Assembly: GCA_963765495.1 (NCBI GenBank) | Contig: CAVXWP010000001.1 | Span: 864,001-928,000, forward strand | Source of the DNA: Blastocatellia bacterium | GTDB lineage: Bacteria > Acidobacteriota > Blastocatellia > UBA7656 | Length of the DNA: 64,000 nucleotides | Direction: 5' to 3' | In this document: piece after piece, positions 1,118-24,037 of the stretch | Layout: every line of letters starts with the position of its first letter | How positions within the stretch are numbered: position 1 is the stretch's first letter | Made by a program: the position numbers and the translations under genes | The notes under the pieces: generated by a model | Database searches by the model: none | What the model was told of the DNA's origin: nothing | The model's input: the letters and a program-made list of their open reading frames with translations, nothing else

Positions 1118-3073
1118 CTAATCTCCTCGTCGGGTCGCAACCCCGATGCGCCGCGCAAGATCGGCAAACCTCGGGTCCGGGCGCAGGCCATCGAAAATTG
1201 GGTCTGCTCCGATATATATGATCCTGTATGAACGCTCCTCGTATGCTTTTTCAAGCCATCTTAGCGTCTCATCTCTGTTGCCAAGCCCAATATGGATCAT
1301 CGCTATCTCGTAGGCCGGCGCAGCACCGCGCTTCGACTTTGTCTGCAACTCGTCGAGAACTCTCAAAGCTTCGTCTCTGTTGCCTGACATGGCATATGCG
1401 TATCCAAGCGATGCCTTGATCGGGGAACGATCTCCAATAAGGGCAACCGATTTCTCGAAGCTGGCGATGGCTTCTTCGTGCATCCCTTTTTGCACGTAGA
1501 CAAATCCGAGCGTGAAATGTGCCGCCGCGAAGTTTCGGTTCAAATCCAGTGTCTTTTGCAACTGCTCTATCGCCTGGTCGTACTGTCGGGCGAAGTAATG
1601 TATCCTTGCTTTGTCCCTGTTGATGATGAGTGAGAGAGGGTTGAGTTTTCTGGCCTGTTCCACCTCCCGCAACGCCTCTTCGATCCGTCCCGTCACCGCC
1701 AAGCAGTCGGCATACCACTGGCGCGCAGAGGCATAATTCGGATTGATCTCGATGGCGCGCTGGAACTCGTTTTCGGCGGCTGCCATGTCGTGATCGTAAG
1801 CCATCCTGACAAGCCCCAGCGAGGCATGGGCCTCAGCGAGATGGTCGTCGAGTTCCAGCGCGCGCATCGCTGCCGATCTCGCTTTGGGCATCACCGTACT
1901 TGCGGGCAGTCGAAGCCCTCCGCCAAGCACATAGCTGTCGGCAAGGCCCGCGTAAGCCAGCGCGTAAGTCGGGTCTTTGCCGAGCGCTTTTTCGAAATAC
2001 TCAATGCCTTTGCGCAGCCCTTCCTGACTTCTCTTATTCCAGAAGTAACGGCCTTTGAGATAGAGTTCATAAGCCTCGGTGTTGTGGGTGTAGCGTTTGG
2101 TCAGAAGCCCTCTTTCTTCGCCGCTCAATTCCAGTGTCAGCGCCCGCGTCACCTGTTCGCTTATCGAATCCTGCACGGCGAATATGTCCGTAAACTGCTC
2201 GTCGAACTTCTCCGCCCATAGCGTTTTGCCGTCGGGAACGCTTATGAGTTGAACGGTCACTCGAATTCGGGCGCCCAATCTTTGGACGCGACCGTCAAGC
2301 AGCGAGTCCACGCCAAGCTCGCGACCGACCTCAAGCAGATTCTGTCGGGGATCGTCATACCCACTGACGGCGCTCGTGGGGCAGATAGACATCTCCTTTA
2401 TGCGGCTCAGACCCGTTATGAGCGCGTCGGCCATACCCAGACCCAGAGACTCATCGCTTCCGTCATCGCTCATAGGTTTGAAAGGCAGCACGGCCAGCGA
2501 TCTCGGCTTCGCGGCAGGCGCGCGCTCGTTGGATTTGTCCGCGAAGAAACGATACGAGGCCCCGGCAACAAGCAATATCAGAAGGATGCCTGCGGCGGCA
2601 GCGATTCGGCGCGGCGTCAAGATAGCTTCTGGCGTAGTCGCTCTACTCGCTAATTGCGAAGTCTGTGCGGAGCGGTCTTCTTCCTCCTCGGTGATAATAC
2701 GCGACCTCGTGAAGCTCGCTACTATTAACCCGTCATCATTATCTGTCGAAATGCTAACCGGAGCCACAAAGCGATAGCCTCGCTTCGGCACAGTCTCTAT
2801 ATACCTGCTCTGGCCGGGCGTCTCGCCAAGAGCCTTTCTCAAAGTGGAAATGTTGCGGTTGAGATTGCCTTCTTCAACGACAGTATCGCGCCAGACCAGG
2901 CGCATCATTTCGTCCTTTTCAACTACCCGGCCCCGGTTTTCGACAAGCGCCAGAAGTATATCGAACACCTTTGGAGTCAGCGGCACCGTCTCTCCACCGC
3001 GCAGCAGAACCCGTTCGGTAGCATCTAACCAGTATTCATGGAATATGTATAAATGCTTTATTTGCTTGTTCAT
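1118..3073 (-). CDS. Transmembrane transcriptional regulator: OmpR/PhoB (CadC/ToxR-like) winged helix + TM + TolB-like domain + TPR repeats
   Basis: LTPKVFDILLALVENRGRVVEKDEMMRLVW...YIETVPKRGYRF wHTH; TM AAAAGILLILLVAGA; SLAVLPF TolB-N/adenylate-cyclase-associated motif; many TPRs. Confidence 0.9.
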   Translation of the reverse strand: MNKQIKHLYIFHEYWLDATERVLLRGGETVPLTPKVFDILLALVENRGRVVEKDEMMRLVWRDTVVEEGNLNRNISTLRKALGETPGQSRYIETVPKRGYRFVAPVSISTDNDDGLIVASFTRSRIITEEEEDRSAQTSQLASRATTPEAILTPRRIAAAAGILLILLVAGASYRFFADKSNERAPAAKPRSLAVLPFKPMSDDGSDESLGLGMADALITGLSRIKEMSICPTSAVSGYDDPRQNLLEVGRELGVDSLLDGRVQRLGARIRVTVQLISVPDGKTLWAEKFDEQFTDIFAVQDSISEQVTRALTLELSGEERGLLTKRYTHNTEAYELYLKGRYFWNKRSQEGLRKGIEYFEKALGKDPTYALAYAGLADSYVLGGGLRLPASTVMPKARSAAMRALELDDHLAEAHASLGLVRMAYDHDMAAAENEFQRAIEINPNYASARQWYADCLAVTGRIEEALREVEQARKLNPLSLIINRDKARIHYFARQYDQAIEQLQKTLDLNRNFAAAHFTLGFVYVQKGMHEEAIASFEKSVALIGDRSPIKASLGYAYAMSGNRDEALRVLDELQTKSKRGAAPAYEIAMIHIGLGNRDETLRWLEKAYEERSYRIIYIGADPIFDGLRPDPRFADLARRIGVATRRGD

Positions 3074-3124: not shown

Positions 3125-3307
3125 TGCAAAGACTTAAGGCCGCATTCGAGTTATTGTCTGCCGAGTGATCAGAATTCGACGGAAGCCGATCTATCGTACC
3201 TATTGTAATAAAAGGGGACAGTGAAGGCAACGCCTGTCGGTAGTCGATGTTCAGTCGTCAGAAAGCAATCATCTCGGGGCGATTTGCTTTCTACACTTGG
3301 AGTCGGT

Positions 3308-3562
3308 GTGAAGAAAAAGCGCAAAACAGAGATCACTATAGAAACAGCGCGAGTCCTGGTAATAAAAAAATCAGGGAAATCCGTTTCGGCCTGGTGCCCG
3401 CAATGCTTGCAGCGTGTCGCAATGATCACGCCCGAACAGGCTATGGTAGTTGCGGGCGTCAACTGGCGCACGATATACCGCTGGGCTGAGGCCGGTAGTA
3501 TACACTCTACCGAAACCCCCGAAGGCTTTCTGCTCATCTGCCTCGATTCGCTCTCCCCATAA
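3308..3562 (+). CDS. Small HTH protein (excisionase/MerR-like) with CxxC motif
   Basis: GTG at 3308 after ggag; WCPQC then ITPEQAMVVAGVNWRTIYRWAEAGSIH HTH pattern; C-terminal LICLDSL. Confidence 0.7.
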   Translation: MKKKRKTEITIETARVLVIKKSGKSVSAWCPQCLQRVAMITPEQAMVVAGVNWRTIYRWAEAGSIHSTETPEGFLLICLDSLSP

Positions 3563-3611
3563 TTTAAGAGGTTCGCATAATTTAAGAGGTTCGCATAATT
3601 TAAGAGGTTCG
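3558..3611 (+). repeat. Perfect 18-bp tandem repeat x3 (cataatttaagaggttcg)
   Basis: Units at 3558, 3576, 3594; first contains the HTH stop codon, last supplies aagagg RBS before ATG 3613. Confidence 0.95.
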
Positions 3612-3612
3612 A

Positions 3613-6600
3613 ATGAAAAGCAGATTTTCACTTCCAACAATCATTCGATTACCATTGATGATCAAGCGTCGAATTTGCCGGGCTCGATTCCAATTTATCC
3701 TCGCCTTCCGGCCCTGCTCGACCGGGGCCGCCTTCGCGTTGATTGCAGTTCTGCTTATAGGAGCGGCAACCGCGATAGCCGATTTGAAAAGCGCCGAACA
3801 GGCTCAAAGCGCTTCGCCCGATCTCAATCACTCCTATCTCGGCAAACTTGAGCCGGGTACAAGCATCAAGCGTGAGATCGCAGGTGGTAAGACACACTCA
3901 TATCGCGTCACGCTCGCATCAGATCAGTTTTTACGAGCCGTCATCCATCAACGTGATATTGATGTCAGTGTCAGACTGATCGGGCCGGATGGGATTCAGA
4001 TCACAGAGGCGAGAAACATCCTTGACACGGCGCGACCGGAGCGGATTTCTTTCGTGGCGGATAAATACGGCGATTACAGCCTGGAGGTGGTCGCAATAGG
4101 TAATGAAGAGGATGTGGGCAATTATGAAATGCGCGTCGAAGAGTTGCGAATCGCCACACCAGAAGACCGTAGTCTCACCGCCGCCGAGAAACTCTATCGG
4201 GAAGCAGAGCGGCTGCATGCGCAACCGAATCCGCGGTCGCGGCGCGAAGCCATAAAGAAATACGAACAGGCGCTACCGCTATGGCAGCAAGCCCGTGATC
4301 TGCGTGGGGAGGCCGACACGCTTCAGTATCTTTCGAACGCTTACTACTTGCTTGGTGAATCGGAAAAGGCGGTTGAATACCTCACCCGGGCACGTCCGCT
4401 CTATCGAGCCGCCGGGGACAGCCACGGAGAATCGCTGACCCTACAGGGGCTTGGTTTGATGAATCACCTGTCGGGTAACCTGCACAGGGCGCTCGAATAC
4501 TATAAGCAGGGGCTGGAGCTGCATAGAGAGCTCAGGGACAGATGGGAAGAAGCCGGGACGCTCAACAACATAGGCGGAGTTTATTCCTATATGGGAGAGC
4601 ACCAGAAGGCGCTCGAATACTATAAACTCTCGCTTCCCTTGCACCGGGATTTAAAGGATCAAAGGGGCGAGGCCGTCACGCTCAACAACATCGGCGAGGT
4701 TTATCGCATCCTGGGCGATAACCAGAGGGCGCTCTCATATTACGAGAAATCCTTGCCGCTCCGGCGGCGAGTGAAAGACCTTCGCGGGGAAGCTGTCACG
4801 CTCAATAATATAGGTCTGGTATACATGGCGATGGGCGAGTATCGCAAAGCCCTTGAGCGAATGGATGAATCATTGAAGCTTAAGCGCGAGGTGGGATACC
4901 GCTTCGGAGAAGCCTCCACGCTCAATGGTATTGGGGCCATCTATCATAAGCTGAACGACTACGAAAAGGCGCTTGAGATTCTCAACCAGGCGCTCGAATT
5001 GAGGCGGGCCGTGGGAGATCGCAGGGGAGAAGCCAATACTCTCTACACCCTCGGCTCGGTCTATTTCTCGATGGGCAAACCGGCCAGGGCAATGGAGTAT
5101 TTCAACCGGGCGCTGCCGTTGAGCAGGTCCGTCTGGGACCGCATCCTGGAGATGGCGATTCTTTACAGCATTGCCGACATCGAGCGCGAGCGGGACAACC
5201 TCCTTGAGGCCCGCTCGCGGGCCGATGAGGCGCTGGCAATCATCGAGTCATTGCGTTCGAATGTGGCGGGCCAGGAATTGCGCGAGTCCTTCTTTGCGTC
5301 AAAACAGAATCATTATGAGCTATACGTTGACGTGCTGATGCAACTTCACCATCAGAGCGGGTCCGACCGATATGACGTGAAAGCCTTCGAGGCAAGCGAA
5401 CGCGCCCGTGCTCGTTCTTTGCTGGATACGTTGAGCGAAGTTTGCGCCGGCATCCGTCAGGGGGTTGACCCTGCGCTATTTGAACGCGAGCGGAGATTAC
5501 AGCAACAACTAAATGGCAAAGAGGCGCTTCGAATGCAATTGCTCAGGCGCAAGAACGCCGAAAAGAAGATCGAGGCGATGGAGCGCGCGATCAACGACCT
5601 GCTCAATCAATATAGAGAAATCCGAACGCGAATACGAATAGAGAGCCCGCGCTACGCGGCGCTTTCCGACCCGCAGCCGCTCAACCTCGAAGAAGTCCAG
5701 CGTCTCGTTCTCGATGATGAAAGCCTCCTGCTTGAATACTGGCTTGGAGAGAAAAGGAGCTATCTGTGGGCTGTTACTACCTCTTCGATTACAGGCTACA
5801 CTCTGCCTGCGCGCGCTGAAATAGAATCTGCGACGCGGCGCGTTTACGAATTGCTTACGGCCCGCAACGAGCGCCCGAAGGGTGAAACCCCCAGACAGAG
5901 ACAATCGCGCGTAGCGAGAGCGGATGGTGAGTACATGGCAGCAGCCCGCCGCTTGAGCCGTATGCTGCTTGGGCCGGTTGCTGCTCGGCTCGGCAACAGA
6001 CGGCTGCTGATCGTAGGCGACGGCGCATTGCATTACTTACCTTTCGGGGCACTGCCTTTGCCACAGGTTCGGGAGGCGGCTGCCGTTGATAAACTTAAAG
6101 GCGGCAGAAAAGATGCGACCGGTTTATATAAGCCGCTGGTAATTGAACACGAAATAGTGACCCTCCCATCGGCTTCGGTGCTGGCAGTTCTCAGACGAGA
6201 AATAAACGGACGCAAGCCTGCTCCAAAGCTTGTGGCCGTGCTGGCCGATCCGGTATTCAGGAGCAACGATCCTCGCATAAATATCAAACCAGTAGAATCG
6301 GTGGACGATCCAATCAAGCGGAGCCGGACCACTACAGGATTGCAGGTTTCAAATTCGGAATCTGTTCGTCCGATCAACGAATCGGAGAAAAACAGCTTCA
6401 GACGGCTCCGCTTCAGCCGCCAGGAAGCCAATGCAATTATAGCCCTCGTCCCGGCAGAAAAGAGCCTCAAAGCGATTGACTTCGCCGCCAGTCACGCGAT
6501 GGCCATGGGAACTCAACTGGAAAAGTATCGCATTCTCCACTTCGCCACACACGGATTGCTCGATAGTCGTCACCCGGAGCTATCAGGGATCGTGCTCTCG

Positions 6601-6975
6601 CTCGTAGATGAACAGGGCCGTCCGCAGGATGGTTTCTTGAGATTACATGAAATCTACAACCTCAAGCTCAATGCCGACCTCGTTGTGTTGAGCGCGTGTC
6701 AGACGGCTCTGGGCAAAGAGATAAAAGGAGAGGGCCTTGTCGGGCTTACCCGAGGTTTCATGTACGCGGGAGCGCCTCGGGTGGTGGCGAGTCTCTGGAG
6801 CGTAGAAGACCGAGCTACGGCAGAACTGATGAAGCGATTTTATGAGGCGATGTTGAGCAAGGGCATGACGGGGGGGGCGGCGCTCAGGGCGGCGCAGGTG
6901 GAGTTGTGGAAAGAACGCCGGTGGCAATCGCCTTATTACTGGGCCGGATTCGTGCTTCAGGGAGAATGGAAATAA
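3613..6975 (+). CDS. Exported TPR-CHAT domain protein (caspase-like clan CD peptidase) with N-terminal PPC-like domain
   Basis: Hydrophobic N-terminal segment AAFALIAVLLIGAATAIA; PPC-like GKTHSYRV...LIGPDG; ~40-aa TPRs (GEAxTLNNIG); CHAT dyad LHFATHG and VVLSACQT; C-terminal SPYYWAGFVLQGEW. Confidence 0.93.
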   Translation: MKSRFSLPTIIRLPLMIKRRICRARFQFILAFRPCSTGAAFALIAVLLIGAATAIADLKSAEQAQSASPDLNHSYLGKLEPGTSIKREIAGGKTHSYRVTLASDQFLRAVIHQRDIDVSVRLIGPDGIQITEARNILDTARPERISFVADKYGDYSLEVVAIGNEEDVGNYEMRVEELRIATPEDRSLTAAEKLYREAERLHAQPNPRSRREAIKKYEQALPLWQQARDLRGEADTLQYLSNAYYLLGESEKAVEYLTRARPLYRAAGDSHGESLTLQGLGLMNHLSGNLHRALEYYKQGLELHRELRDRWEEAGTLNNIGGVYSYMGEHQKALEYYKLSLPLHRDLKDQRGEAVTLNNIGEVYRILGDNQRALSYYEKSLPLRRRVKDLRGEAVTLNNIGLVYMAMGEYRKALERMDESLKLKREVGYRFGEASTLNGIGAIYHKLNDYEKALEILNQALELRRAVGDRRGEANTLYTLGSVYFSMGKPARAMEYFNRALPLSRSVWDRILEMAILYSIADIERERDNLLEARSRADEALAIIESLRSNVAGQELRESFFASKQNHYELYVDVLMQLHHQSGSDRYDVKAFEASERARARSLLDTLSEVCAGIRQGVDPALFERERRLQQQLNGKEALRMQLLRRKNAEKKIEAMERAINDLLNQYREIRTRIRIESPRYAALSDPQPLNLEEVQRLVLDDESLLLEYWLGEKRSYLWAVTTSSITGYTLPARAEIESATRRVYELLTARNERPKGETPRQRQSRVARADGEYMAAARRLSRMLLGPVAARLGNRRLLIVGDGALHYLPFGALPLPQVREAAAVDKLKGGRKDATGLYKPLVIEHEIVTLPSASVLAVLRREINGRKPAPKLVAVLADPVFRSNDPRINIKPVESVDDPIKRSRTTTGLQVSNSESVRPINESEKNSFRRLRFSRQEANAIIALVPAEKSLKAIDFAASHAMAMGTQLEKYRILHFATHGLLDSRHPELSGIVLSLVDEQGRPQDGFLRLHEIYNLKLNADLVVLSACQTALGKEIKGEGLVGLTRGFMYAGAPRVVASLWSVEDRATAELMKRFYEAMLSKGMTGGAALRAAQVELWKERRWQSPYYWAGFVLQGEWK

Positions 6976-7042
6976 AGATCGGCGCGCGGTGGCCGATGGT
7001 TAAGCATATCGTAGAGTTAAATTGATCTCTTGCCGATTCCGT

Positions 7043-7072
7043 ATTTGAGATCTCAGATCTCAAATCTCAGAT
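7043..7072. repeat. Heptamer short tandem repeat (atctca(a/g)/tttgaga)
   Basis: atttgagatctcagatctcaaatctcagat; same family at 14591, 17255, 55424. Confidence 0.7.
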
Positions 7073-7124
7073 GAGCGAAAGTGAAATATATCAATCTCTG
7101 ACCACCGACCGCCGATCACTGCTT

Positions 7125-7150
7125 TGAAATGTTTTCGCAAATTTTGACAG
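7125..7150 (+). promoter_or_regulatory. Candidate ECF promoter P1 (TGAAAT-N15-GACAG) upstream of the sigma gene
   Basis: tgaaat gttttcgcaaatttt gacag; one of four same-spacing copies. Confidence 0.7.
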
Positions 7151-7219
7151 CTACGGGTGAGGCGGTACGGGAAGACTGCGCGCGGCCAGGGCGCGTTGTG
7201 TTAATGGAGTATTGGAGAC

Positions 7220-7804
7220 GTGAGTAAGGCTGTGCTGCAAGAAAAAAAATGGGTCTTAACGCAACGCGCGTTCGACAAGTTTCTCGCCTGCCTAGACTCG
7301 GATCGGGAGCGAGCGGGACGGCAGTACGAGATGATCCGCTCTAAACTCATAAGCTTTTTCGAATGGCGCAACTCGCCGTTTCCCGAAGATCACGCCGATG
7401 AAGCAATCAACAGAGTCGTCAGAAAGATTGATGAAGGAGTTCAATTGCGCGATCCTTCCACTTACGTCTTTGGCATCGCCCGTATGCTACTTCTTGAGAT
7501 CGCAAAAGAGCAGCACAAGAAATGGGCAGCAACCGATCATCTGGCCAGGTCTGTCCCTCCTCTTGAACTTGCGGATGGATCCGAATCGAAAGTTGAGTGC
7601 TTGAGACGTTGCCTCGCGGAGTTGCCCACAGAGAGCCGCGAGTTGATCACACAGTATTATCAGGGAGAGAGACGGGAGAAGATAATAAACAGAAGACGTT
7701 TGACCGAAAGACTTGCAATACCCATCAATGCGTTGAGGATCAAGGCTTGCAGGATAAGGGAAAAGCTCGCAGGTTGCCTCGATCATTGTATGGAAAAGCG
7801 TTGA
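7220..7804 (+). CDS. ECF-type sigma-70 factor
   Basis: 194 aa; region-2-like PEDHADEAINRV...YVFGIARMLL; region-4-like CLRRCLAELPTESRELITQYY...LAIPINALRIKACRIREKL. Confidence 0.85.
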   Translation: MSKAVLQEKKWVLTQRAFDKFLACLDSDRERAGRQYEMIRSKLISFFEWRNSPFPEDHADEAINRVVRKIDEGVQLRDPSTYVFGIARMLLLEIAKEQHKKWAATDHLARSVPPLELADGSESKVECLRRCLAELPTESRELITQYYQGERREKIINRRRLTERLAIPINALRIKACRIREKLAGCLDHCMEKR

Positions 7805-7832
7805 GCAGGGTAAGGGACGAAAGGCCGAAGAG

Positions 7833-7858
7833 TGAAACGGATTTGAGATTCCTGTCAG
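7833..7858 (+). promoter_or_regulatory. Candidate ECF promoter P2 (TGAAAC-N15-GTCAG) upstream of the anti-sigma gene
   Basis: tgaaac ggatttgagattcct gtcagta in the 80-bp gap. Confidence 0.65.
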
Positions 7859-7884
7859 TACCGGATAGGCGAGGGTTGAGCGAA

Positions 7885-8916
7885 ATGGACCGACAAACGG
7901 ATGAAAAACTGATAGCCCGATTTCTGCTGGGAAATTTGGCAGAGCAGGATCGCGTTGCTCTCGAAGAGCGATTCTTTGCCGATGACGATTTCTACTCGCA
8001 AATGCTCGCTATCCAGGAAGAGTTAGCCGACGATTATGTGTGCGGCGATCTTTCTGAAAGCGAGCGCGAGCAGTTTGAGCGGCGTTTCTTAACATCTCCT
8101 TACAGGCGAAGGAGAGTAGAATTCGCTGCGACCCTGGCAAAGGCGCTCCCAGAAATGCGTGATGAACAGGCGAAATCTGCTACGAGCGCGTGGGACGTTT
8201 CCTGGTGGCGCGCCCCGCTTGGATTCCTGCGAACGCAAAGCCCGGCTTTCACTCTGGCCATTTATGCGGCGATATTCTTGTTGTTGTTCGGGATTACGTG
8301 GCTTGAGATTGAGAACCGGCGGTTGGACGCGCAGCTTGAACGAGCGCGTGACGAGCAAGGCCGGTTTTCAAAGCAGGCTCAGGCGGATCGTGAAGAGTTC
8401 GAGCGAGAAGAGAAAAAGCGCCGTCAGCAGATGATTGAGCTGCAATCTCAAAGAGACGAAAAGGATGCGAAGCTTCGAGACGAACGGCGCAGGGTTGAGG
8501 AGATTGAGCGAAGAGCGGCAAGTGAACATCGTCGAAATGAGCTCCGTCCGTCGGACAACCTCGTCTCGTTCGCGCTTCTTCCAGGACTTGTAAGGGGAAG
8601 CGGCAATGAACCCGCAGATGAGCCTGAGAAGATCGTTATTCCACCAAAGACAAACTCTATCAGGCTGCAACTCGAACTCGATAAGGAAGAGAATTATCGG
8701 AGTTATCGCACCGAACTGCGAACAGCGGGCGGCAATCTTGTATGGAGCCAGACTCTACTGGCTCCTAAACAGAGCGGCGGCTCGCAGGTTGTGCCTGTAA
8801 CTCTTCCGGCCAGTATTCTCTCTCAGGGCGAATATGAAGTGACGCTTGCGGGAGTAAACCGGGATGGCGCCCGCGAAGTCATAAGCTATTATTACTTTAT
8901 CGCGCTGAAGAGGTAG
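7885..8916 (+). CDS. Putative membrane anti-sigma factor (degenerate ASD N-terminus, TM, coiled coil, C-terminal beta-sandwich)
   Basis: ATG 7885 after gaggg; LIARFLLGNLAEQDRVALEERFF...DYVCGDLSESEREQFERRF anti-sigma-like N-terminus; TM FTLAIYAAIFLLLFGITWL; directly downstream of the ECF gene. Confidence 0.75.
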   Translation: MDRQTDEKLIARFLLGNLAEQDRVALEERFFADDDFYSQMLAIQEELADDYVCGDLSESEREQFERRFLTSPYRRRRVEFAATLAKALPEMRDEQAKSATSAWDVSWWRAPLGFLRTQSPAFTLAIYAAIFLLLFGITWLEIENRRLDAQLERARDEQGRFSKQAQADREEFEREEKKRRQQMIELQSQRDEKDAKLRDERRRVEEIERRAASEHRRNELRPSDNLVSFALLPGLVRGSGNEPADEPEKIVIPPKTNSIRLQLELDKEENYRSYRTELRTAGGNLVWSQTLLAPKQSGGSQVVPVTLPASILSQGEYEVTLAGVNRDGAREVISYYYFIALKR

Positions 8917-8921
8917 TTTTC

Positions 8922-8998
8922 CAACGAAAAAGAGAGAGGGCGCAAAGAGATGACGCAGATGATTCGTCATCCTTTTGCGCCCTCTCTCTTTTTCGTTG
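8922..8998. terminator. 34-bp inverted repeat, likely intrinsic terminator
   Basis: caacgaaaaagagagagggcgcaaagagatgacg / cgtcatccttttgcgccctctctctttttcgttg, 2 imperfect positions, 9-nt loop, right after the anti-sigma stop. Confidence 0.8.
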
Positions 8999-9060
8999 AA
9001 CCCTGCGCCTGTCCGCAGAAGCCCGCCTTTGACCGCAGCCGGAAATCGAGAAAGTTATTG

Positions 9061-9086
9061 TGAAATGTTTTTATGATCATCGCCAG
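9061..9086 (+). promoter_or_regulatory. Candidate ECF promoter P3 (TGAAAT-N15-GCCAG)
   Basis: tgaaat gtttttatgatcatc gccagta, upstream of the 9241 unit. Confidence 0.7.
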
Positions 9087-9240
9087 TAGAGGTGAAAGAA
9101 GGATTTGAAGCAGGTTGGCTTAGATAAGAGTCCCGCTCGAAGCCGGGCTTCTTATCCAGGTCGGGGGATAGAGTTATTGACTCCTTGCCTGATCAAGCCA
9201 AAACGAGGCGCAAAATGATTTCAGATTAAGGGGAAAAATC

Positions 9241-9450
9241 ATGAAGAGCGTTTTCAGATCAAGACGCATTTCAAGGACTCTCGCGGCGTTTCTATTCGTT
9301 TCTGCGCTCTCTCTTTTTGGAGTGACCGCGCCTGTGGCATCAGCTCAGAGCTTCCCCGATCTTACCTTTTCTGCTGCCGGGCAGAATTGCAGCAAGTTCC
9401 GAAATCAACCCATCGCCCTTATAAGCACAAGGGCGTGCCGGATCGAATGA
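9241..9450 (+). CDS. Small secreted peptide or truncated CARDB-type gene
   Basis: aagggg RBS; clear signal peptide ending ASA-Q; mature QSFPDLTF...C...C, 34 aa. Confidence 0.55.
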   Translation: MKSVFRSRRISRTLAAFLFVSALSLFGVTAPVASAQSFPDLTFSAAGQNCSKFRNQPIALISTRACRIE

Positions 9451-9463
9451 GACGAGGAGGGTT

Positions 9464-10246
9464 ATGAAAAGTGCGCTCAAGACAATTGCGATAAGAACTT
9501 TGCCGACCGCTCTTGTGACGCTCGGTCTCGCAATACAAATCTGCGCCAACACAAGGACTATTGAATCCCGTTTCGCGTTGTCGGCCGATATCCGAAGCGA
9601 ATTCAGCACACGGTTTAATGCCCTCAGCCCCGGGAGGATCCTGATGGAAGGCACATGGACTGCCGCAGGTCCCGGCTCCGTTTCTGTTGCCTTGAAACTT
9701 ATGCTGATTCGACCCGACGGGACCGAAGCGGCCCGCAAGCAGGGTCCGGCTCCGCTCAGGCTCGAATATCGTGTATCTGAACAGGAGATAGATTCCTTTA
9801 TCGCCAGAGGCCGGACCTTTTGGACCATCAAGGTCATAAACAGCGCCGATGCGAACAGGCGAGAGGTGGGGGGCAAACTGAGAGTGACGGTTCCCACATT
9901 GAGCCGCAAAGTCTTAGACACGCAATTCACACTGCTCGGGTCGAGCAACGCTCAGGAAATACCTTTCCTTGTCCCCGCGCCCGGAAAGATAGTTGTAGGA
10001 GCCGAATGGGCAGGCGATCCGCTATCGGCCTCCGAACAGCAAGGAGTGTCAATAACGGTCAGTTTGATCCATCCCGGCCAGGCGAGGACTTACGCGCGGA
10101 GGCAGGGCACAAGTCCTCTCAGGATAGAGCATCAGGTGACGGATCGCGAACTCGATAAGGGGACCCGTTGGATTGTCAGGGTCCAGAACGATAATCAGGT
10201 GAAGATAAAAGGCAGGGTCAAGGTTACATACACGCCAAGCCTTTAA
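9464..10246 (+). CDS. Secreted protein with two tandem PPC/jelly-roll-like domains
   Basis: gaggaggg RBS; signal peptide; internal repeat PG(R/K)I..W...LI(R/H)P...AR(K/R)QG..PLR(L/I)E..V...E(I/L)D...W...V.N. Confidence 0.8.
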   Translation: MKSALKTIAIRTLPTALVTLGLAIQICANTRTIESRFALSADIRSEFSTRFNALSPGRILMEGTWTAAGPGSVSVALKLMLIRPDGTEAARKQGPAPLRLEYRVSEQEIDSFIARGRTFWTIKVINSADANRREVGGKLRVTVPTLSRKVLDTQFTLLGSSNAQEIPFLVPAPGKIVVGAEWAGDPLSASEQQGVSITVSLIHPGQARTYARRQGTSPLRIEHQVTDRELDKGTRWIVRVQNDNQVKIKGRVKVTYTPSL

Positions 10247-10309
10247 GGTGAAACCGCTCCGCCGCTTTTTTACCGGCGGGTAGATTTTGATCAAAGAAAG
10301 GAGAACGCA

Positions 10310-11128
10310 ATGAAACGCATTATGATCTGCATGCCGGTATTGCTTGCTGTATTCCTGCTGAATGCAGCCTACTCGATCCCGTGTACTGCCGCACTCGCTG
10401 AATCAAGGATGTCGGCCTTTCAGCTCTCATCGGGGGGGTCATCGGGTTCATGCCCGGATCTGCCCGCGCAGGTTGTTCAACTCGATGTTGCTCCCGCTTT
10501 GCTTGCGTCCAAGTACAGCATAAAGACCGCCTGGAGCGCGAACGCGCCTCAGTGCTTCACTATAAGGCGGTTCATAGTAAAAGCGAATATAACATTCGCA
10601 AACGGCCAGACAAAAAGCATACAAAAGTCGCTCTCCCCTTCTCAGACAAGCTTTCAGGGAGATGTGCCCGGCGCGGGCTCGCTGCCCAGGTTTGCCGATG
10701 TCACCATCACGGCGATAGCGACCGCCCCCGCATCGGGGATCGTGGCTTCCCCGTCAGGCATAGGACTTTCCGGAAATTGCCCGAGCATACCTGTGCATAT
10801 CACGCAGACCCTCTTCAACGGTCTTCAGCCTATTCCCAACCGCCCCGGCGATTATTATCCCAAGGTCAAAGTGGTCTGGAATGTAAACGGGTTGCTTCCG
10901 TGCATTGCGGTCAAGGAGTTCAAATTGACCGTCAGAGTAGGGGCTGATGGAAAAGAGCATCAAAGGACGGTGACTCTTCCCAGCAATCAACTCTCGGCAG
11001 ATGTGGTCATAACATCTGTGGCGGTAGGCTCAGGTTTTACGCCCCAACAGGTCAAATCACAGATCCAGGCTTCGGGCACGGCCCGCATAGAAGGAACCGC
11101 CCTGAAGAAAATACGGATCAACCGATGA
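10310..11128 (+). CDS. Secreted beta-rich protein with two Cys-paired repeated domains
   Basis: aaggag RBS; signal peptide; repeats CPDLP...W...C-F.I..F and CPSIP...W...C-I.V..F. Confidence 0.75.
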   Translation: MKRIMICMPVLLAVFLLNAAYSIPCTAALAESRMSAFQLSSGGSSGSCPDLPAQVVQLDVAPALLASKYSIKTAWSANAPQCFTIRRFIVKANITFANGQTKSIQKSLSPSQTSFQGDVPGAGSLPRFADVTITAIATAPASGIVASPSGIGLSGNCPSIPVHITQTLFNGLQPIPNRPGDYYPKVKVVWNVNGLLPCIAVKEFKLTVRVGADGKEHQRTVTLPSNQLSADVVITSVAVGSGFTPQQVKSQIQASGTARIEGTALKKIRINR

Positions 11129-11292
11129 TGCTCTCCCGCCGTTCGCGCGCCGATGGCAGGCGAGCATCTTACCGCAAACTCTGGATGTGACCGTTTCCCG
11201 GACTCTACCAATGTCGTTCAACAGAGTGCCGTCACAAAGACGGTCGTAGTCAGAGAAACGTTCGGACAGCCCTGTGCTGTAGGCAATTTTCG

Positions 11293-11318
11293 TGAAATGT
11301 TTTTTCATAATCTGCCAG
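11293..11318 (+). promoter_or_regulatory. Candidate ECF promoter P4 (TGAAAT-N15-GCCAG)
   Basis: tgaaat gttttttcataatct gccag, upstream of the 11424 unit. Confidence 0.7.
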
Positions 11319-11423
11319 GAAGAGTGATGTGAGAAATCAAGACATCAACGGATTAAAGAATCGCCCGCCAGGCGAGTCGCTCATCCGGGCCGAGAATTTT
11401 CCAGCAAAGAAAGGAGTAACGAG

Positions 11424-12218
11424 ATGAAGAACCAGTCTATCTTCAAGTCAGCTATAACGTTAACCGCAACAATGTTGTTTATGATTATGCTTGGAGCAAG
11501 CCAGAGCGCCAGCGCGCAATTCGGGCAGAAACCGGACTTGAGGGTCGCCAGAATTGATACGCCGGGAGGGCTCTGCGTCGGAAACAAGAGCAAGATCAGG
11601 GCTACCATAAACAACTCGCAGAACATCGGCGTCAGACAAGCCTTCAAGGTCCTGCTCAACATACAGTTTCCCAACGGCGGGCAGGGAGCTTACGAGGCGA
11701 CAATAAGCGGCATAGGACCCAACGGCAATCAAGCCGCCTGGTTCCAAAACGTCAGCCTGCCAAGCGCCGGGTATTATGCGATGAAGGTGTTTGTTGACCC
11801 GAAGAATAACATTGCCGAAACTGTCGAGAGCAACAATGACAGAGGTCAAGGTTTCAATGTGACGAAGTTCTGCGACGCGCCCACTCCTGTGCAGACATAC
11901 ACACTCACAGTGAAAGTCCACGAGAGCGGCACCTGGAGCGGGGGACAGGGGCAATGGATTCAGGGCGTAACGGTTCTTCTCGAAGACCTGGCCTCCCCGC
12001 ACCAATTCAGTTCTCGCACGGCGACGACCAATAGCCAGGGGGTGGCGACCTTTAATAACGTGCCGCCCAGCAAGCCGGGGAAAAACTTCAAGATCACGGC
12101 TTCGAAATCGAGATGCGCGCAGGTGTCCGGCAACCCCGCGCTTGCTCCCTCAATCAAACAGTTCAAAATGGGCGCATACAACTCGACGCAGCATCTGGCC
12201 CTCGACTGCGATCAGTGA
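11424..12218 (+). CDS. Secreted CARDB-domain protein with C-terminal transthyretin/carboxypeptidase-regulatory-like domain
   Basis: Signal peptide ASA-Q; PDLRV...VDPKNNIAETVESNN CARDB signature; GVTVLL...TTNSQGVATFNNVP. Confidence 0.8.
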   Translation: MKNQSIFKSAITLTATMLFMIMLGASQSASAQFGQKPDLRVARIDTPGGLCVGNKSKIRATINNSQNIGVRQAFKVLLNIQFPNGGQGAYEATISGIGPNGNQAAWFQNVSLPSAGYYAMKVFVDPKNNIAETVESNNDRGQGFNVTKFCDAPTPVQTYTLTVKVHESGTWSGGQGQWIQGVTVLLEDLASPHQFSSRTATTNSQGVATFNNVPPSKPGKNFKITASKSRCAQVSGNPALAPSIKQFKMGAYNSTQHLALDCDQ

Positions 12219-12243
12219 TCTTCACTCAAAGAGTCTCACCACG

Positions 12244-12300
12244 GTTGCGAGAATCAACCGAAAGGCAAAATCACTTCAGCACAGGGTTGGCTCTCGCAAC
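12244..12300. other. Intergenic 16-bp hairpin between the CARDB and barrel genes
   Basis: gttgcgagaatcaacc ... ggttggctctcgcaac. Confidence 0.5.
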
Positions 12301-12362
12301 TGAAACCAAAACAATGAGGCCGGACCAGGAACACCGGCTTCATAAAGGCGAGGGAAATAGAG

Positions 12363-14561
12363 ATGTTTAGAAAAACGAGATCAATCCCGCGCAGGCCGGG
12401 CACGATCCTGGCCCTCAGCCTGGCGACTTTGCTCGCCTGTGCCAACGCTGTCTTGCTTGCCCGGGCCGATTCACAGGATATTAGCGCCACAGCCAGCTTC
12501 TCAGATAAAGGATCGCTCGCTCTCGGCGAAAGGCTTTCCTTCAGCCTCAATCGCCCTCTCCAACCCGATGAGGGGGTGCTTGCAGCCCTCATCGGCTCGA
12601 CAGATATAACCGCCCTGTCGAGCGTGGATAAAAACGGTCTGAGTTATGATACGGCGATACTGCCTTTGCCTGCGGGTGAAACCGTGGCGGTCCTCTATCT
12701 GGTCACGCCAGACAACCGGTGGACAGAGATAGCCCGATTCCCTCTGCGCATCGAGCCCGACATCGCCGCAGCGCCCGTCACCCAACAGCAACCCCCCGCA
12801 GATTCCACTCAGCAGTCCGTAAATGTTCAAAAGAAATGGGGATTTGACAGAGCCAACATAACTCCATCGCTGACCATAGGGATGAAGTCACAGTTTGCAG
12901 AAAAAGCGTTCCCCGACACAAGCGCTTCCGAGCGGCCCACTTATAATGACCTCACATTGCAGGGTAGCCTTCAAACCGACATCGCTCGCGGGGCTTTTAA
13001 CTCGCAAACTCAATTCGATATCGTAGGCTCAAGCTTTCGAAAGGAAGCGATCCGTTTCGATCAACTGGGCGATGCCGCCCCTCATGTAGACCTGTCGAGT
13101 TACCTTGTACAGTTCCAGGCGGGCAAAGCCAAAGTGCAGGTAGGTCATGTGGCATTCGGCGCGAATCGCCATCTCATCAACAGCTTTTCGAGCCGTGGCA
13201 TAACGGTTACCTTTCCCGTCACTTCGCGCGCGGACTTTTCGCTCGCGGCCATGAACGGTACGAGCATAGTCGGCTGGAGCAACTTCTTCGGTCTGAATCG
13301 TCGCAAGCATCAGATCATAAGCGGCGCTTTCGGATATGAGATCATCCCAAGCCGCCCGGGCGCGCTCAGAATCGAGACCTCGATAATGCACGGGTCGGTT
13401 CTTCCCTTGAGCAACTTCAATCAGGGAGTCGTAAACGACGCGGAGCAGAGCAAGGGGGTGAGCGTGCGCGTTGTGGCAAGCGACAAGACCGAGCGTTTTC
13501 GCCTCGATGGCGGAATGGCCCGAAGCCGCTTCAATAACCCCGCCGATCCTTTGCTCCAGCAAGGACTCAATATCGTTCCGGTTCGCGAGACGGCTCGCAA
13601 CGCGCGCTACCTGGACGCAAGCTACCACATATTGCGCAATCTCCCCTTGAGTGCATCAAAGAACGTCAATCTCACCTTAAATTATCGCCACGAGAGGGTG
13701 GCTCCATTGTTTCGCAGCGTGGCGGCCTTTACGCAGGCTGATCGGTTCGACAATCAATTCGAGATCGTCAGCGGCATCGGCGAAATCATGGCTACCTTCG
13801 CTCATGGCCGGTCCAACGATAATCTCGATGACATTGCTTCGATCCTCAAGACTTTCACACGGCGCACGGGCCTCATTTTGGGCGTGCCGCTTGGCTCGCT
13901 CTTTGGCGATCAGGCGAGCCCTTCGCCCTGGCTTCCGAGAGTCTCATACAATTTTGACCGAACGCATCAGTTCGGCAAGGCACTTCCTGTAAACGGCGGC
14001 TTCGATAGCGCGAGCCAGATACCCGATCAGATCAGCACAAATCAGAGCCTTCTCGCCGAGTGGCAATTCGAGAAGTGGCGCTTCGGTTATCGCATCAATC
14101 ATTCGTTTCAAAATAACCGGCAGCCGGGAAGAGAGCTTGCCGATCTGAAAAATTTCATTCACGGTTTCACGTTCGGCGTGACGCCTGTTCCGGCTTTCGA
14201 TTTGAGTTTCGACCTCGGCAGGGAAAGCGCCGATAACAGAGAACAAAATCGCACTGATAACACTCTTCGCATAGGCTCGACAATCAACTGGCGAATGACT
14301 CAAAAAACCGCTCTTGCCGCGACCGTTTCAACCACTCTGGCCGGAGACGTTGCTGATACAAGCCGCAGTCGCAATGCCGAGCTTGACTTGCAATGGTCTT
14401 ACAGGTTCGACATGGAAAAGAGCCGGTTCAGAAAGATCAGCGGCCAGTTCTTTATCAGGTATGCGAACCGCTACGCGAGGATGCGAGACAGGTTGTTAGG
14501 ATTCAGTAACCTGACGAAGATCCAAACGCTCAATACTGGAATCAGTTTTACCTTTTTCTAA
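12363..14561 (+). CDS. Putative outer-membrane beta-barrel protein with N-terminal periplasmic Ig-like domain
   Basis: Signal peptide; Q/P linker; many alternating amphipathic strands; C-terminal LNTGISFTFF BAM-type Phe signal. Confidence 0.75.
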   Translation: MFRKTRSIPRRPGTILALSLATLLACANAVLLARADSQDISATASFSDKGSLALGERLSFSLNRPLQPDEGVLAALIGSTDITALSSVDKNGLSYDTAILPLPAGETVAVLYLVTPDNRWTEIARFPLRIEPDIAAAPVTQQQPPADSTQQSVNVQKKWGFDRANITPSLTIGMKSQFAEKAFPDTSASERPTYNDLTLQGSLQTDIARGAFNSQTQFDIVGSSFRKEAIRFDQLGDAAPHVDLSSYLVQFQAGKAKVQVGHVAFGANRHLINSFSSRGITVTFPVTSRADFSLAAMNGTSIVGWSNFFGLNRRKHQIISGAFGYEIIPSRPGALRIETSIMHGSVLPLSNFNQGVVNDAEQSKGVSVRVVASDKTERFRLDGGMARSRFNNPADPLLQQGLNIVPVRETARNARYLDASYHILRNLPLSASKNVNLTLNYRHERVAPLFRSVAAFTQADRFDNQFEIVSGIGEIMATFAHGRSNDNLDDIASILKTFTRRTGLILGVPLGSLFGDQASPSPWLPRVSYNFDRTHQFGKALPVNGGFDSASQIPDQISTNQSLLAEWQFEKWRFGYRINHSFQNNRQPGRELADLKNFIHGFTFGVTPVPAFDLSFDLGRESADNREQNRTDNTLRIGSTINWRMTQKTALAATVSTTLAGDVADTSRSRNAELDLQWSYRFDMEKSRFRKISGQFFIRYANRYARMRDRLLGFSNLTKIQTLNTGISFTFF

Positions 14562-14661
14562 GCGCCTCATTCTAAGCGCCCCTGATTTTCGATTTGAGAT
14601 TTGAAATCTGGATTCGGGGGTTAGAGATGAGCGAATCAAGACACGCAGCGAGGTTAAGATT

Positions 14662-15918
14662 ATGAAGCGACTGCTACTCATCCCCGCACTTCTCTCTCTT
14701 TTATTAACAGACAGCGCGGCGCAACAACAGATCAAGGTCAACCCTTCGGGTGTCAATGTCAACGCAAGCGGCGCGACCACGGTCTTTCTTACATTCGGCA
14801 GTCTGCTCAACAAGCGACCGGCTGAAGCCACGTGGTGCGGCGAGTTGATGTCGGCTGCGCCCGACATAGGCTTCAAGTGCAACCCCGCGACCATATTCGG
14901 CCAACTCCCGTCGCGCTTCGACCAATCCCGCTTGAGCGGCTCGAATGCGTTTACCGACATAATGTCTATACCGCCTTCGGTTGCGAGGCGGGCCTATCAG
15001 GCTGCGCAGGACGGGCAGCAGTCGTCGTTCTTTTACGTCCGGCGATTCGTTAATCCTTCGGGTGGAGCCGATGAGTATGTCCCGGTTACCTGCCGCATGA
15101 CGGGCGGGGGGGCGCGCACTCCTTTTGCGCTGACCGATGTGCGGCTATCGTTCTCAATTGATAAATCCGTTCTGCTGGTAGGACCCGGCCAGAAGATGCC
15201 TGCGTTGAAAGCCGAAATAGCTTACAACGGCACGGGCCGTCTGAAGGGTCGCTGGGAAGTCGTACTGCCGGGTGAAGAACCGCCTTCCGAGCGCGACCTG
15301 CTGACAGAAGCAACGCTTCCCATCGAAGAGCGGGGATTGCAACGACGTTACACCGAGTTGAAAAGGTTCAACATCTTCTTGCCTCCGACCGGGAAGTACA
15401 CACTGCCCGGACCTGATCCGGCGCGTCTGCCAAACGAGGTCAATGGTCAGTACCTCGTGTTGTTGCGCATAGAAGCTTCGGATGATAAGGAAGCCGATTC
15501 CAGCCTCGCAAGCGTCGGGGCCGGAGCGGGTGTCGTTCATAGCGGCGCGGTAGCAGGCTTTCCACTGCCGCCCCTGCGCTACTACGTCGGAAGCGGCAGC
15601 AGCAACATTGCGGCTCAACCGGCAGGAAAGCTCGTACAACTTCTGCCCGAAGCCAATTTCATCGTCCCCTCAGGCGCGCCCGTGGATTTCAGATGGCAAG
15701 AAATAGAGCAGGGGAGCTTTTACCGAATAGAGATAAGCAACGCGCAGCAAGAGATAGTCTTGTCGGCGCTGATGCCGCCCGGCACCGGATATTATCGTGC
15801 TCCATCGTGGTTGAAGGACAAAGCCGGAGACGGAAGCTTGCGCTGGCGAATAGTTGCCTTAGATCGAGCAGGAAAGCCGATTGGCGAAACTCCCTGGCGC
15901 TTTCTGCGACTCATGTAA
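14662..15918 (+). CDS. Secreted/periplasmic multi-Ig-like protein, probable partner of the barrel
   Basis: gaggt RBS; signal peptide SAA-Q; Cys-containing N-domain; YNGTGRLKGRWEVV; FN3-like C-terminus (FRWQE...YRIEI...WRIVA). Confidence 0.75.
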   Translation: MKRLLLIPALLSLLLTDSAAQQQIKVNPSGVNVNASGATTVFLTFGSLLNKRPAEATWCGELMSAAPDIGFKCNPATIFGQLPSRFDQSRLSGSNAFTDIMSIPPSVARRAYQAAQDGQQSSFFYVRRFVNPSGGADEYVPVTCRMTGGGARTPFALTDVRLSFSIDKSVLLVGPGQKMPALKAEIAYNGTGRLKGRWEVVLPGEEPPSERDLLTEATLPIEERGLQRRYTELKRFNIFLPPTGKYTLPGPDPARLPNEVNGQYLVLLRIEASDDKEADSSLASVGAGAGVVHSGAVAGFPLPPLRYYVGSGSSNIAAQPAGKLVQLLPEANFIVPSGAPVDFRWQEIEQGSFYRIEISNAQQEIVLSALMPPGTGYYRAPSWLKDKAGDGSLRWRIVALDRAGKPIGETPWRFLRLM

Positions 15919-23437: not shown

Positions 23438-24037
23438 ATGACAATGCTTATGGAGCAACTCGCGACAATGGAGAAACGCGAAAGCGAAGCACAAATCATC
23501 GAAGCTTGTCAGCGGGGCGACCGGGCGGCTTTTCAGCTATTGTTTGAAGCCCATAAGGACAGGGTTTATTCGATAGCTCTGCATTACGGCAATGATGAGG
23601 CGCTGGCGAAAGATGTTACCCAACAGGTCTTTTTAAAGCTCTTCACTACCATAACGCAATTTCGCCATCAGTCCGAATTCACCACCTGGCTCTATCGAAT
23701 CGTAGCAAATACTTGCGTGGACGAGCAGCGCAAGCGAAAAAGGTTCGTCCCGCTCGGCGAAGATGTAGAGGTCAGAGATATGTCAGGCAAAGATTCACAG
23801 GAAGAGGTTTTCATGAGGCGACAACTGGCCGATTCGGTCAGGGCCGCTATCGCCGATCTCTCACCGAAACTGCGGATGCCCATCCTGCTCAAGTATGTCG
23901 AGGAACTCTCTTACGATGAGATCGCCGAAGCCCTCGGCTGCTCGACCGGGACCGTAGGGTCGCGACTCAACAGGGGGCACAAGATATTGGCGCGTAAGCT
24001 CGGCCATTTGCGTGGCGCGCTTACGGCAGAGGAATGA
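23438..24037 (+). CDS. ECF sigma-70 factor (SigW/RpoE-like)
   Basis: GDRAAFQLL, AKDVTQQVFLK, FTTWLYRIVAN, LSYDEIAEALGCSTGTVGSRLNRG. Confidence 0.93.
   Translation: MTMLMEQLATMEKRESEAQIIEACQRGDRAAFQLLFEAHKDRVYSIALHYGNDEALAKDVTQQVFLKLFTTITQFRHQSEFTTWLYRIVANTCVDEQRKRKRFVPLGEDVEVRDMSGKDSQEEVFMRRQLADSVRAAIADLSPKLRMPILLKYVEELSYDEIAEALGCSTGTVGSRLNRGHKILARKLGHLRGALTAEE

Follow-up and report, generated by a model that had tools for sequence, protein, structure and literature searches.

Known systems that couple TPR-CHAT proteins to regulation

Several described regulators join tetratricopeptide repeats (TPRs) to a caspase-like CHAT domain, and they provide the frame for a locus analyzed here in a Blastocatellia bacterium: a gene trio for an exported TPR-CHAT protein, a divergent extracytoplasmic function (ECF) sigma factor and a single-pass anti-sigma, followed by an array of exported proteins. 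The locus lies in a stretch of 64,000 nucleotides (GenBank assembly GCA_963765495.1, contig CAVXWP010000001.1, positions 864,001 to 928,000), hereafter the window. Coordinates are window positions on the plus strand unless otherwise stated; the eleven elements of the locus all lie at the positions given below and are all co-oriented on that strand. The locus is most probably a two-gene form of the DdvA/DdvS design; its closest known system is DdvA/DdvS and not the CRISPR-associated Craspase.

The anti-sigma DdvA of Myxococcus xanthus spans the membrane, and its periplasmic portion is a TPR-CHAT with a His-Cys dyad (PMC11506125; PDB 8rot, 8rw5). In the available text of that report, self-cleavage of the linker by the CHAT domain is proposed as the site-1 step, not demonstrated, and the truncated forms of DdvA depend on RseP; the TPR-CHAT blocks RseP sterically, and full-length DdvA is stable in cells. 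Linker residues V129-P140, 37-48 residues past the transmembrane segment, lie nearest the partner's dyad. The same text names no cut residue and reports DdvA-like proteins just from Myxococcota and one Comamonas.

ECF54 of the Actinobacteria has a conserved TPR-CHAT neighbor, for which proteolytic control has been proposed (PMC7826278 supplement, PMC8999054); as far as the available part of the supplement goes, its context comprises a subtilase and a carboxypeptidase-regulatory-like gene, no transmembrane anti-sigma, and a GTATCAG/CTCC promoter, and CHAT is mentioned there under no other ECF group (PMC7826278 supplement). In Type III-E Craspase, the TPR-CHAT protein Csx29 is switched on allosterically through its TPRs and cuts Csx30, the inhibitor of CASP-sigma; according to the accessible text, the protease is cytoplasmic, RNA-triggered and bound to Cas7-11, and it cleaves after Met or Leu (PMC10028731). 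Finally, HetF of Anabaena has been shown to cut PatU3 after R117, with a small residue next (R117-S118) (PMC9457339). Unlike the window protein, the HetF CHAT domain acts on a cytoplasmic regulator, with its TPRs across the membrane, and no sigma factor appears in that account (PMC9457339). Searches of the full-text literature turned up no description of a split periplasmic CHAT/anti-sigma/ECF unit, though one may exist among subscription papers and supplements.

A probable two-gene counterpart of DdvA and DdvS

The TPR-CHAT gene (3613..6975) encodes 1120 residues: a hydrophobic segment at residues 39-56 that, on inspection of the sequence, terminates in an A-x-A site, an N-terminal beta domain that is weakly PPC-like, TPRs, and a CHAT domain at 777-1118. 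The CHAT domain is recognized by Pfam at E 4e-70 (236.9 bits against a cut-off of 24), together with TPRs, and carries His980 (6550..6552) in the motif LHFATHG and Cys1029 (6697..6699) in LSACQT, a dyad kept in 40/40 related split CHATs. An N-terminal hydrophobic segment occurs in 40/42 of these relatives, compared with a hydropathy of 0.6-1.1 in three cytoplasmic CHATs of the same genome. The exported TPR-CHAT with intact dyad described in an earlier, sequence-only reading of this DNA thus stands. Its PPC label is weak: matches are found in 6/40 relatives (best E 1e-4) and none in the window protein. Domain score and dyad motifs suggest a clan CD peptidase; conservation and the HetF precedent likewise point to protease activity and to a P1 preference, the latter considered below.

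The second gene (7220..7804, 194 residues) encodes a divergent ECF (group 4) sigma. It has no Pfam sigma match, and its NCBIfam matches all fall under the cut-off; among its relatives, Sigma70_r4_2 is matched in 23/41 and r2 in 3/41. The family profile matches Mycobacterium tuberculosis SigL at E 1e-4, and the top Foldseek matches of the predicted model are ECF sigmas, including SigE, SigH, SigW and AlgU, with a best E of 2e-3 and nothing at E 0.001 or better. A protein of about 200 residues with predicted sigma2 and sigma4 domains only is consistent with group 4, and the earlier identification as an ECF sigma is borne out.

The third gene (7885..8916, 343 residues) encodes the single-pass anti-sigma. 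Its structural model has a helical N-terminal domain (a zinc-less domain resembling the zinc-binding anti-sigma, or ZAS, type, 1-90), one transmembrane helix (121-140), a coiled coil (141-215) and an immunoglobulin (Ig)-like domain (226-342), in agreement with the coiled coil and beta domain noted from the sequence. Related anti-sigmas match zf-HC2 in 31/57 cases. The layout is that of Class I ZAS proteins, with a helical N-terminal domain, one transmembrane segment and a gene adjoining that of the sigma; the zinc ligands of that class (HxxxCxxC) are absent, the alignment being without a conserved His or Cys. The protein would be expected to bind and inhibit its sigma.

Matches to the sigma were found in 33/41 related genomes, with up to 13 per genome, and in 30/201 genomes across the phylum. 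Neighborhoods of about 20 kb were surveyed for 80 of the 150 matches listed, taken roughly in rank order with longer contigs favored, neighbors unseen and the window's genome omitted; the loci are not independent by kinship, and the linkage figures are counts, not a test. An anti-sigma domain accompanies the sigma in 79/80 loci, a CHAT in 64/80 and a barrel in 3/80, so the earlier expectation that CHAT, sigma and anti-sigma would be co-conserved is upheld. The order of the three genes differs among loci. In sigma loci of other classes (n=20), the figures are 19/20 for the anti-sigma and 11/20 for CHAT; as background, a CHAT lies within 10 kb of 9/46 ECF-like genes of the window's genome, true associates included. 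Genes downstream of the trio change freely between loci, while anti-sigma and CHAT remain together. In 11/80 loci, and in one paralogue on contig C2 of the window's genome, the two form one protein of about 1200 residues (anti-sigma, transmembrane segment, TPR-CHAT); a profile of this fusion is matched by 302 proteins at E 1e-50. The window trio is a real, conserved and uncharacterized signaling unit.

Comparison with DdvA and DdvS shows an ECF sigma, a single-pass anti-sigma with a ZAS-type cytoplasmic domain and a periplasmic TPR-CHAT dyad on both sides. A search with the fusion profile finds DdvA (8rot_B), with E 7e-9 for residues 72-280 and E 2e-14 for the profile as a whole, part of the score coming from the TPRs, and the fused relatives place an Arg where the DdvA linker meets the dyad. 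In contrast to DdvA, the window has protease and anti-sigma as two genes, and its anti-sigma carries a coiled coil and an Ig-like cap and no zinc ligands. No close relation of the window sigma family to DdvS could be detected, the profile search having returned no match of that kind, and the window targets are exported proteins and a barrel, whereas those of DdvA/DdvS are CBASS and CRISPR. A ZAS domain and a TPR-CHAT in one polypeptide, by which DdvA-like proteins are recognized, are not seen in the window and are seen in the fused relatives, save the zinc ligands. Being unfused and without zinc ligands, the window locus falls outside the present definition of the DdvA family, and it is also outside ECF54 and outside Craspase. 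The sequence-only reading had known of no characterized system with this layout; DdvA/DdvS is an envelope-located relative for which, in the available text, a first cut by CHAT has already been proposed (PMC11506125), and ECF54 is linked to CHAT as well.

With ECF54, the window shares an ECF sigma beside a TPR-CHAT. Assignment to that group was rejected: a transmembrane anti-sigma is present, the subtilase and carboxypeptidase-regulatory-like context is missing, and the promoter motif is TGAAAY-N16/17-CA(G/C/T)T; the window sigma also has no BLAST match at E 1e-4 to the ECF54-like sigmas of the same genome. Three ECF54-like loci were seen in that genome (contigs C9, 798-803 kb; C15, 10-17 kb; C2, 400-406 kb), each with a sigma, a zinc-finger protein, a cytoplasmic CHAT and a probable subtilase, here in an acidobacterium although the group was described as actinobacterial only. 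By eye, an Arg is seen in their zinc-finger proteins as well, in a loop that connects two predicted strands.

With Craspase, the window shares a TPR-CHAT protein, and cleavage of a sigma inhibitor would be a further likeness if the proposal made below is right. Assignment to Craspase was likewise rejected: genes up to 25.7 kb were scanned and included no Cas7-11, Csx30 or Csx31, no CRISPR array was seen in the locus, PADLOC on the 8 main proteins gave TPR-type matches only, and there was no Rfam match in the window. The same PADLOC run on these 8 proteins gives no support to a role in defense.

The paralogues within the genome include several further forms. The fused protein on contig C2 (136191-140523, 1212 residues, beside its sigma) is a DdvA-like protein outside Myxococcota. 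On the same contig (305664-308915) lies a fusion-type transmembrane TPR-CHAT with intact dyad, without anti-sigma domain or linker Arg and with no ECF-like sigma within 10 kb. Two other CHAT paralogues (C9, 675588-678578; C6, 66105-68077) are apparently broken, one ending within the CHAT domain and the other split over two open reading frames (ORFs).

A candidate cleavage site and its possible pocket

The best conserved periplasmic residue of the split anti-sigmas is Arg237 (8593..8595), present in 57/58. In the model it sits in a loop (232-247) between strands 1 and 2 of the Ig-like domain, predicted with lower confidence (pLDDT about 66-75). Among full-length relatives outside the class, an Arg occupies this position in 15/15 (by eye). 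The fusions have no Ig-like domain and carry the motif T-R-G about 38 residues past the transmembrane segment. The residue following the Arg is mostly small, like that at the HetF site R117-S118. Arg237 is therefore a candidate P1 residue, with the cut falling after it.

A corresponding candidate for the arginine-binding (S1) residue is Glu938 of the CHAT domain (6424..6426). Co-variation of the two was tested in the fusions, because a fusion pairs substrate with protease beyond doubt. The set comprised 218 full-length fusions (132 and 86 more), with 49 shorter matches omitted; P0186, misaligned in the second alignment, was scored as Arg from the first. His and Cys of the dyad are intact in 218/218. 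The equivalent of E938 is glutamate in 206/206 fusions with the linker Arg. Among those without it, one branch of eight, with Leu or Tyr in the linker, carries Gln at the E938 position, and P0301, separate from that branch and with a linker Leu, has Gly; one fusion without the Arg lacks both the anti-sigma domain and the motif. The losses amount to 9 of the 11 scorable fusions without the Arg, in two separate branches, with none elsewhere. The Arg group has 71 columns with conservation of 95% or more, and only that of E938 is lost in both events. E938 is also invariant in 40/40 split CHATs. This co-variation points to a cut after R237.

E938 falls in the helix that follows the first core strand, presumably the place of the acidic S1 residue in metacaspases and MALT1. 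A pocket role for E938 is suggested by this clan CD topology together with the co-variation. Asp1066 (W-x-V-x-D) was considered as the main pocket candidate and dropped: Arg fusions have Ser or Thr there, though the Leu branch has Val or Ala.

A complex was predicted for CHAT residues 258-1120 with anti-sigma residues 208-343. The pair scored 0.38, against 0.00 for the best of 3 controls, and was graded as weak support, giving no interface; the corresponding mark is reached by 116/157 solved complexes and 2/215 mismatched pairs, and at 0.60 or below by just 18/157 and both mismatches. At least 75% of the contacts agree between runs, and partner pLDDT is at least 73. The earlier suggestion that CHAT makes the first cut in the anti-sigma has thus gained a candidate site.

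A second anti-sigma family, seen beside exported CHATs in L181-L192, has a loop reading Leu-Met-Gly/Ser; L192 carries a Leu there and L185 an Arg, which offers a natural series at P1.

A predicted promoter motif of the sigma family

Four predicted promoters of the form TGAAAY-N17-CAG mark the locus. Promoter P1 (TGAAAT-N17-CAG, 7125..7160, found by matrix and pattern) precedes the sigma gene; promoter P2 (TGAAAC-N17-CAG, 7833..7861, matrix score 18.2, second best in the window) lies between sigma and anti-sigma; promoter P3 (9061..9096, best matrix score in the window) precedes the array of secreted proteins; and promoter P4 (11293..11328, matrix and pattern) falls within it. Across the 7.3 Mb genome, the strict pattern has 3 occurrences, each of them within the window cluster, a count that is circular, the pattern having been derived from these sites. 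A matrix built from 20 sites of other genomes gives its four highest scores within the 64 kb window to 9061, 7833, 7125 and 11293; the shared motif noticed earlier proves real, and a fourth copy, at 7833, joins the other three.

Relatives have a P2-like site at the equivalent position, often overlapping the sigma stop codon, and L031, L035 and L169 have a P3-like site. The word TGAAAY lies near the sigma stop in 49/83 regions (antisense 5; shuffles mean 11.6, max 20). A TGA stop followed by AAY ends 30/71 sigma genes, compared with 101/2121 long ORFs of the window's genome (other-class loci included). A -10 word of the CA(G/C/T)T type stands at spacer 16-17 in 20/52 sites, against 0-6 at shifted offsets, and behind the anti-sigma a matrix score of at least 12 is reached in 16/90 loci (antisense 4, shuffles 1.0). 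When the regions behind the anti-sigmas were sampled without a seed, a T-rich word was all that came out; the motif emerged once the regions were anchored on the sigma stop. Scans for sigma-70 promoters and terminators gave chance-level results. The motif behaves as a promoter of the window sigma's family, and its placement suggests that this sigma reads it.

Past the anti-sigma stop, a long inverted repeat was read from the sequence (8923..8997, no strand assigned). It is probably a terminator that sets the anti-sigma apart from the target array, and it was missed by the simple terminator scan.

Proposed mechanism and alternatives

The reading that we favor, and consider moderately probable, is a signal-dependent cut of the anti-sigma after R237 by CHAT that frees the sigma. 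At rest, the cytoplasmic ZAS-like domain of the anti-sigma would keep the ECF sigma tethered to the inner membrane, and the TPR-CHAT, exported to the periplasm, would be inactive. A ligand, probably a protein or peptide bound by the TPRs, would align the His980/Cys1029 dyad; CHAT would then cleave the Ig-like cap after Arg237, in the exposed loop that joins its first two strands, and Glu938 would contribute to arginine binding. Once the cap is lost, trimming may follow and an RseP-type protease may cut within the membrane, releasing the sigma. An M50 protease gene of RseP size is present in the window's genome, as in all 14 control genomes. The freed sigma would read TGAAAY-N17-CAG at its own promoter (positive feedback), at that of the anti-sigma, and at two sites in the exported-protein array that ends in the barrel and its partner. 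The P2 site upstream of the anti-sigma gene implies a built-in shut-off loop.

Several points weigh against this reading. In the available account of DdvA, dyad mutants resemble the wild type at rest, and phage Mx4 elicits no self-cleavage (PMC11506125). No CHAT lies within the fetched stretch in 16/80 sigma loci, though most of these keep the anti-sigma Arg. R237 is 97 residues from the transmembrane segment, and a further trimming step must therefore be assumed. The co-variation in fusions depends on two evolutionary events, and glutamate is retained in three fusions without the Arg (P0230, P0306, P0342). In the second anti-sigma family, with Met or Leu in the loop, the adjoining CHAT keeps Glu in 7/9 pairs and has Gln in 2, while the CHAT of the sole Arg member keeps Glu; of 52 listed matches, 12 loci were covered, and in 10 of them a CHAT could be scored. 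No loss of the glutamate is seen in the presence of the Arg, yet the glutamate also occurs without the Arg, and the three fusions and the CHATs of the Met/Leu-loop family show that E938 alone does not set arginine preference. Likeness to the DdvA or Csx29-Csx30 structures may contribute to the complex score. As to the promoters, no motif was found upstream of the CHAT gene or directly upstream of the barrel in the window, some paralogous sigmas show other -35 words, and three close sigma paralogues of the window's genome could read the same promoter sites.

An alternative that we regard as unlikely is that the Arg loop docks in the CHAT active site without being cut, as a pseudo-substrate or grip; a signal would separate the two, and a general periplasmic protease would make the first cut. 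RseB shields RseA, and the TPR-CHAT could similarly be a co-sensor that shields the anti-sigma, or could itself be held off by the anti-sigma. Linkage, fusion, Arg conservation, co-variation and the weak complex score are explained equally well by docking, and in the available text on DdvA both the lack of a resting phenotype in dyad mutants and the steric block of RseP by the TPR-CHAT agree with it (PMC11506125). Cleavage is favored over docking by the retention of His and Cys in 218/218 fusions and 40/40 split CHATs, and by the mostly small residue past the Arg, as at HetF R117-S118.

It seems improbable that CHAT instead nicks the strand 1/2 loop constitutively, without a signal, leaving two halves that stay together as one Ig-like domain until a ligand or force separates them. 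RsgI anti-sigmas reportedly self-cleave in this manner, their pieces being held together until pulled apart, and R237, which in the model separates strand 1 from the remaining strands of the sandwich, is so placed that the fold could survive a nick. Such maturation fits poorly with the fusions, which carry the Arg in a linker without an Ig-like domain, and with the stability of full-length DdvA in cells, as given in the accessible text (PMC11506125). That CHAT is an output or independent partner, processing exported array proteins or an outside peptide while ordinary site-1 proteases degrade the anti-sigma, is as doubtful: the array codes for many small exported proteins, the motif precedes the CHAT gene in one locus (L104) and a fifth of loci are without an adjoining CHAT, but anti-sigma and CHAT stay together and fuse while downstream genes vary freely, the Arg co-varies with a CHAT residue within one polypeptide, and barrel arrays are mostly CHAT-free (CHAT in 8/40).

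Cleavage after R237 may be one instance of something broader, for which we would make only a tentative case. In Acidobacteria, periplasmic caspase-like switches may make up a large family of paralogues, each TPR-CHAT having its own ligand and its own anti-sigma, cut at one coded residue (Arg in most, but Leu or Met in some branches, the protease pocket changing to match). Evolution would turn fused forms into split ones and the reverse, and the sigmas would drive interchangeable arrays of proteins exported through an undescribed barrel-plus-partner system for export or assembly.

DdvA is the one anti-sigma with a periplasmic CHAT that has been studied; in the available text, its authors present self-cleavage as a hypothesis that is untestable until the signal is found (PMC11506125). 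The split system, with its soluble protease, small separate substrate, candidate R237/E938 residue pair, natural P1 variants and predicted promoter, makes this open DdvA-type mechanism testable. If cleavage after R237 is confirmed, a clan CD cysteine protease would join the known site-1 proteases, DdvA-type signaling would extend beyond defense and beyond Myxococcota, and an ECF family would be defined that standard profiles have missed despite up to 13 matches per genome.

The exported array, barrel and partner

Downstream of promoter P3 lie six ORFs. The first (9241..9450, 69 residues, a signal peptide and two Cys) is unverified, with no homologue in L031-L115. In the closest locus, that place is taken by another copy of the 260-residue family (L031, 1639-2469), so the 69-residue ORF may be a remnant, not a signal peptide. 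There follow an exported protein of 260 residues and no family (9464..10246), with homologues upstream of barrels in L031, L035, L112, L113, L138 and L139; one of 272 residues with two Cys-flanked repeats and no family (10310..11128); and one of 264 residues with CARDB and carboxypeptidase-regulatory-like domains (11424..12218). The last two genes encode a probable outer-membrane beta-barrel of 732 residues with a small N-terminal beta domain (12363..14561) and an exported partner of 418 residues (14662..15918), both of unnamed families. The earlier count of six exported proteins including a barrel is matched by the ORFs, but it leans on the 69-residue ORF as its sixth member, and the barrel is deduced from strands and not from a fold.

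The barrel assignment draws on about 25 amphipathic strands in residues 165-732 (the TPR-CHAT, as a control, has 18 in 1120) and on a terminal Phe in 37/39 relatives. Neither barrel nor partner has a Pfam, NCBIfam or PDB sequence match, and the ESM Atlas yields unnamed clusters only. A chaperone-usher pair was considered and rejected: there is no Usher (PF00577) or PapD-type chaperone (PF00345) match in the window's genome, and the barrel profile gives a probability of 0.6% against four acidobacterial ushers, which rejects an usher by sequence, remote fold likeness aside.

The barrel family occurs in 43/151 genomes of the class. Among 40 fetched loci, the 418-residue partner stands directly behind the barrel in 38, with variable small exported proteins upstream; a winged-helix-TPR regulator is near 11, a CHAT near 8, and the window-type sigma/anti-sigma pair in 5. 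In L138 and L139, close relatives of the window array lie directly behind a winged-helix-TPR gene, with no triad and no motif. The barrel and export cluster, which the sequence-only reading had made integral to the system, is better described as a module adopted by different regulators, because most barrel loci are without the sigma/anti-sigma pair and those two have the array behind a winged-helix-TPR gene. It is a recruited target, which came under the sigma/anti-sigma/CHAT triad in the lineage of the window, L031, L035, L037 and L169.

Barrel and 418-residue partner terminate runs of variable small exported proteins elsewhere (L136-L175; contig C7 of the window's genome, 760552-766706), and many of the small proteins near barrels close in a beta-strand with Gly-x-Phe, several belonging to recurring unnamed families. 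These runs look like a system of their own, and barrel and partner form a separate unnamed family that deserves a structure.

Neighboring features

A winged-helix (Trans_reg_C) TPR regulator, of the same family as that near 11/40 barrel loci, is encoded divergently at 1118..3073 on the minus strand and is possibly the older regulator of the exported-protein array. A small BldC/excisionase-like helix-turn-helix gene (3221-3562, plus strand) diverges from it, and the pairing of the two recurs in the window's genome and upstream of CHAT in L031. Three perfect 18-bp tandem copies (3558-3611), each with an AAGAGG-like word, end 2 bases upstream of the CHAT start codon; they may act as a tunable leader or reflect stutter in the assembly. 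Further along the window, a second, canonical ECF sigma and a zf-HC2/FecR anti-sigma (23438-25134) are followed by a gene for a heme-binding protein.

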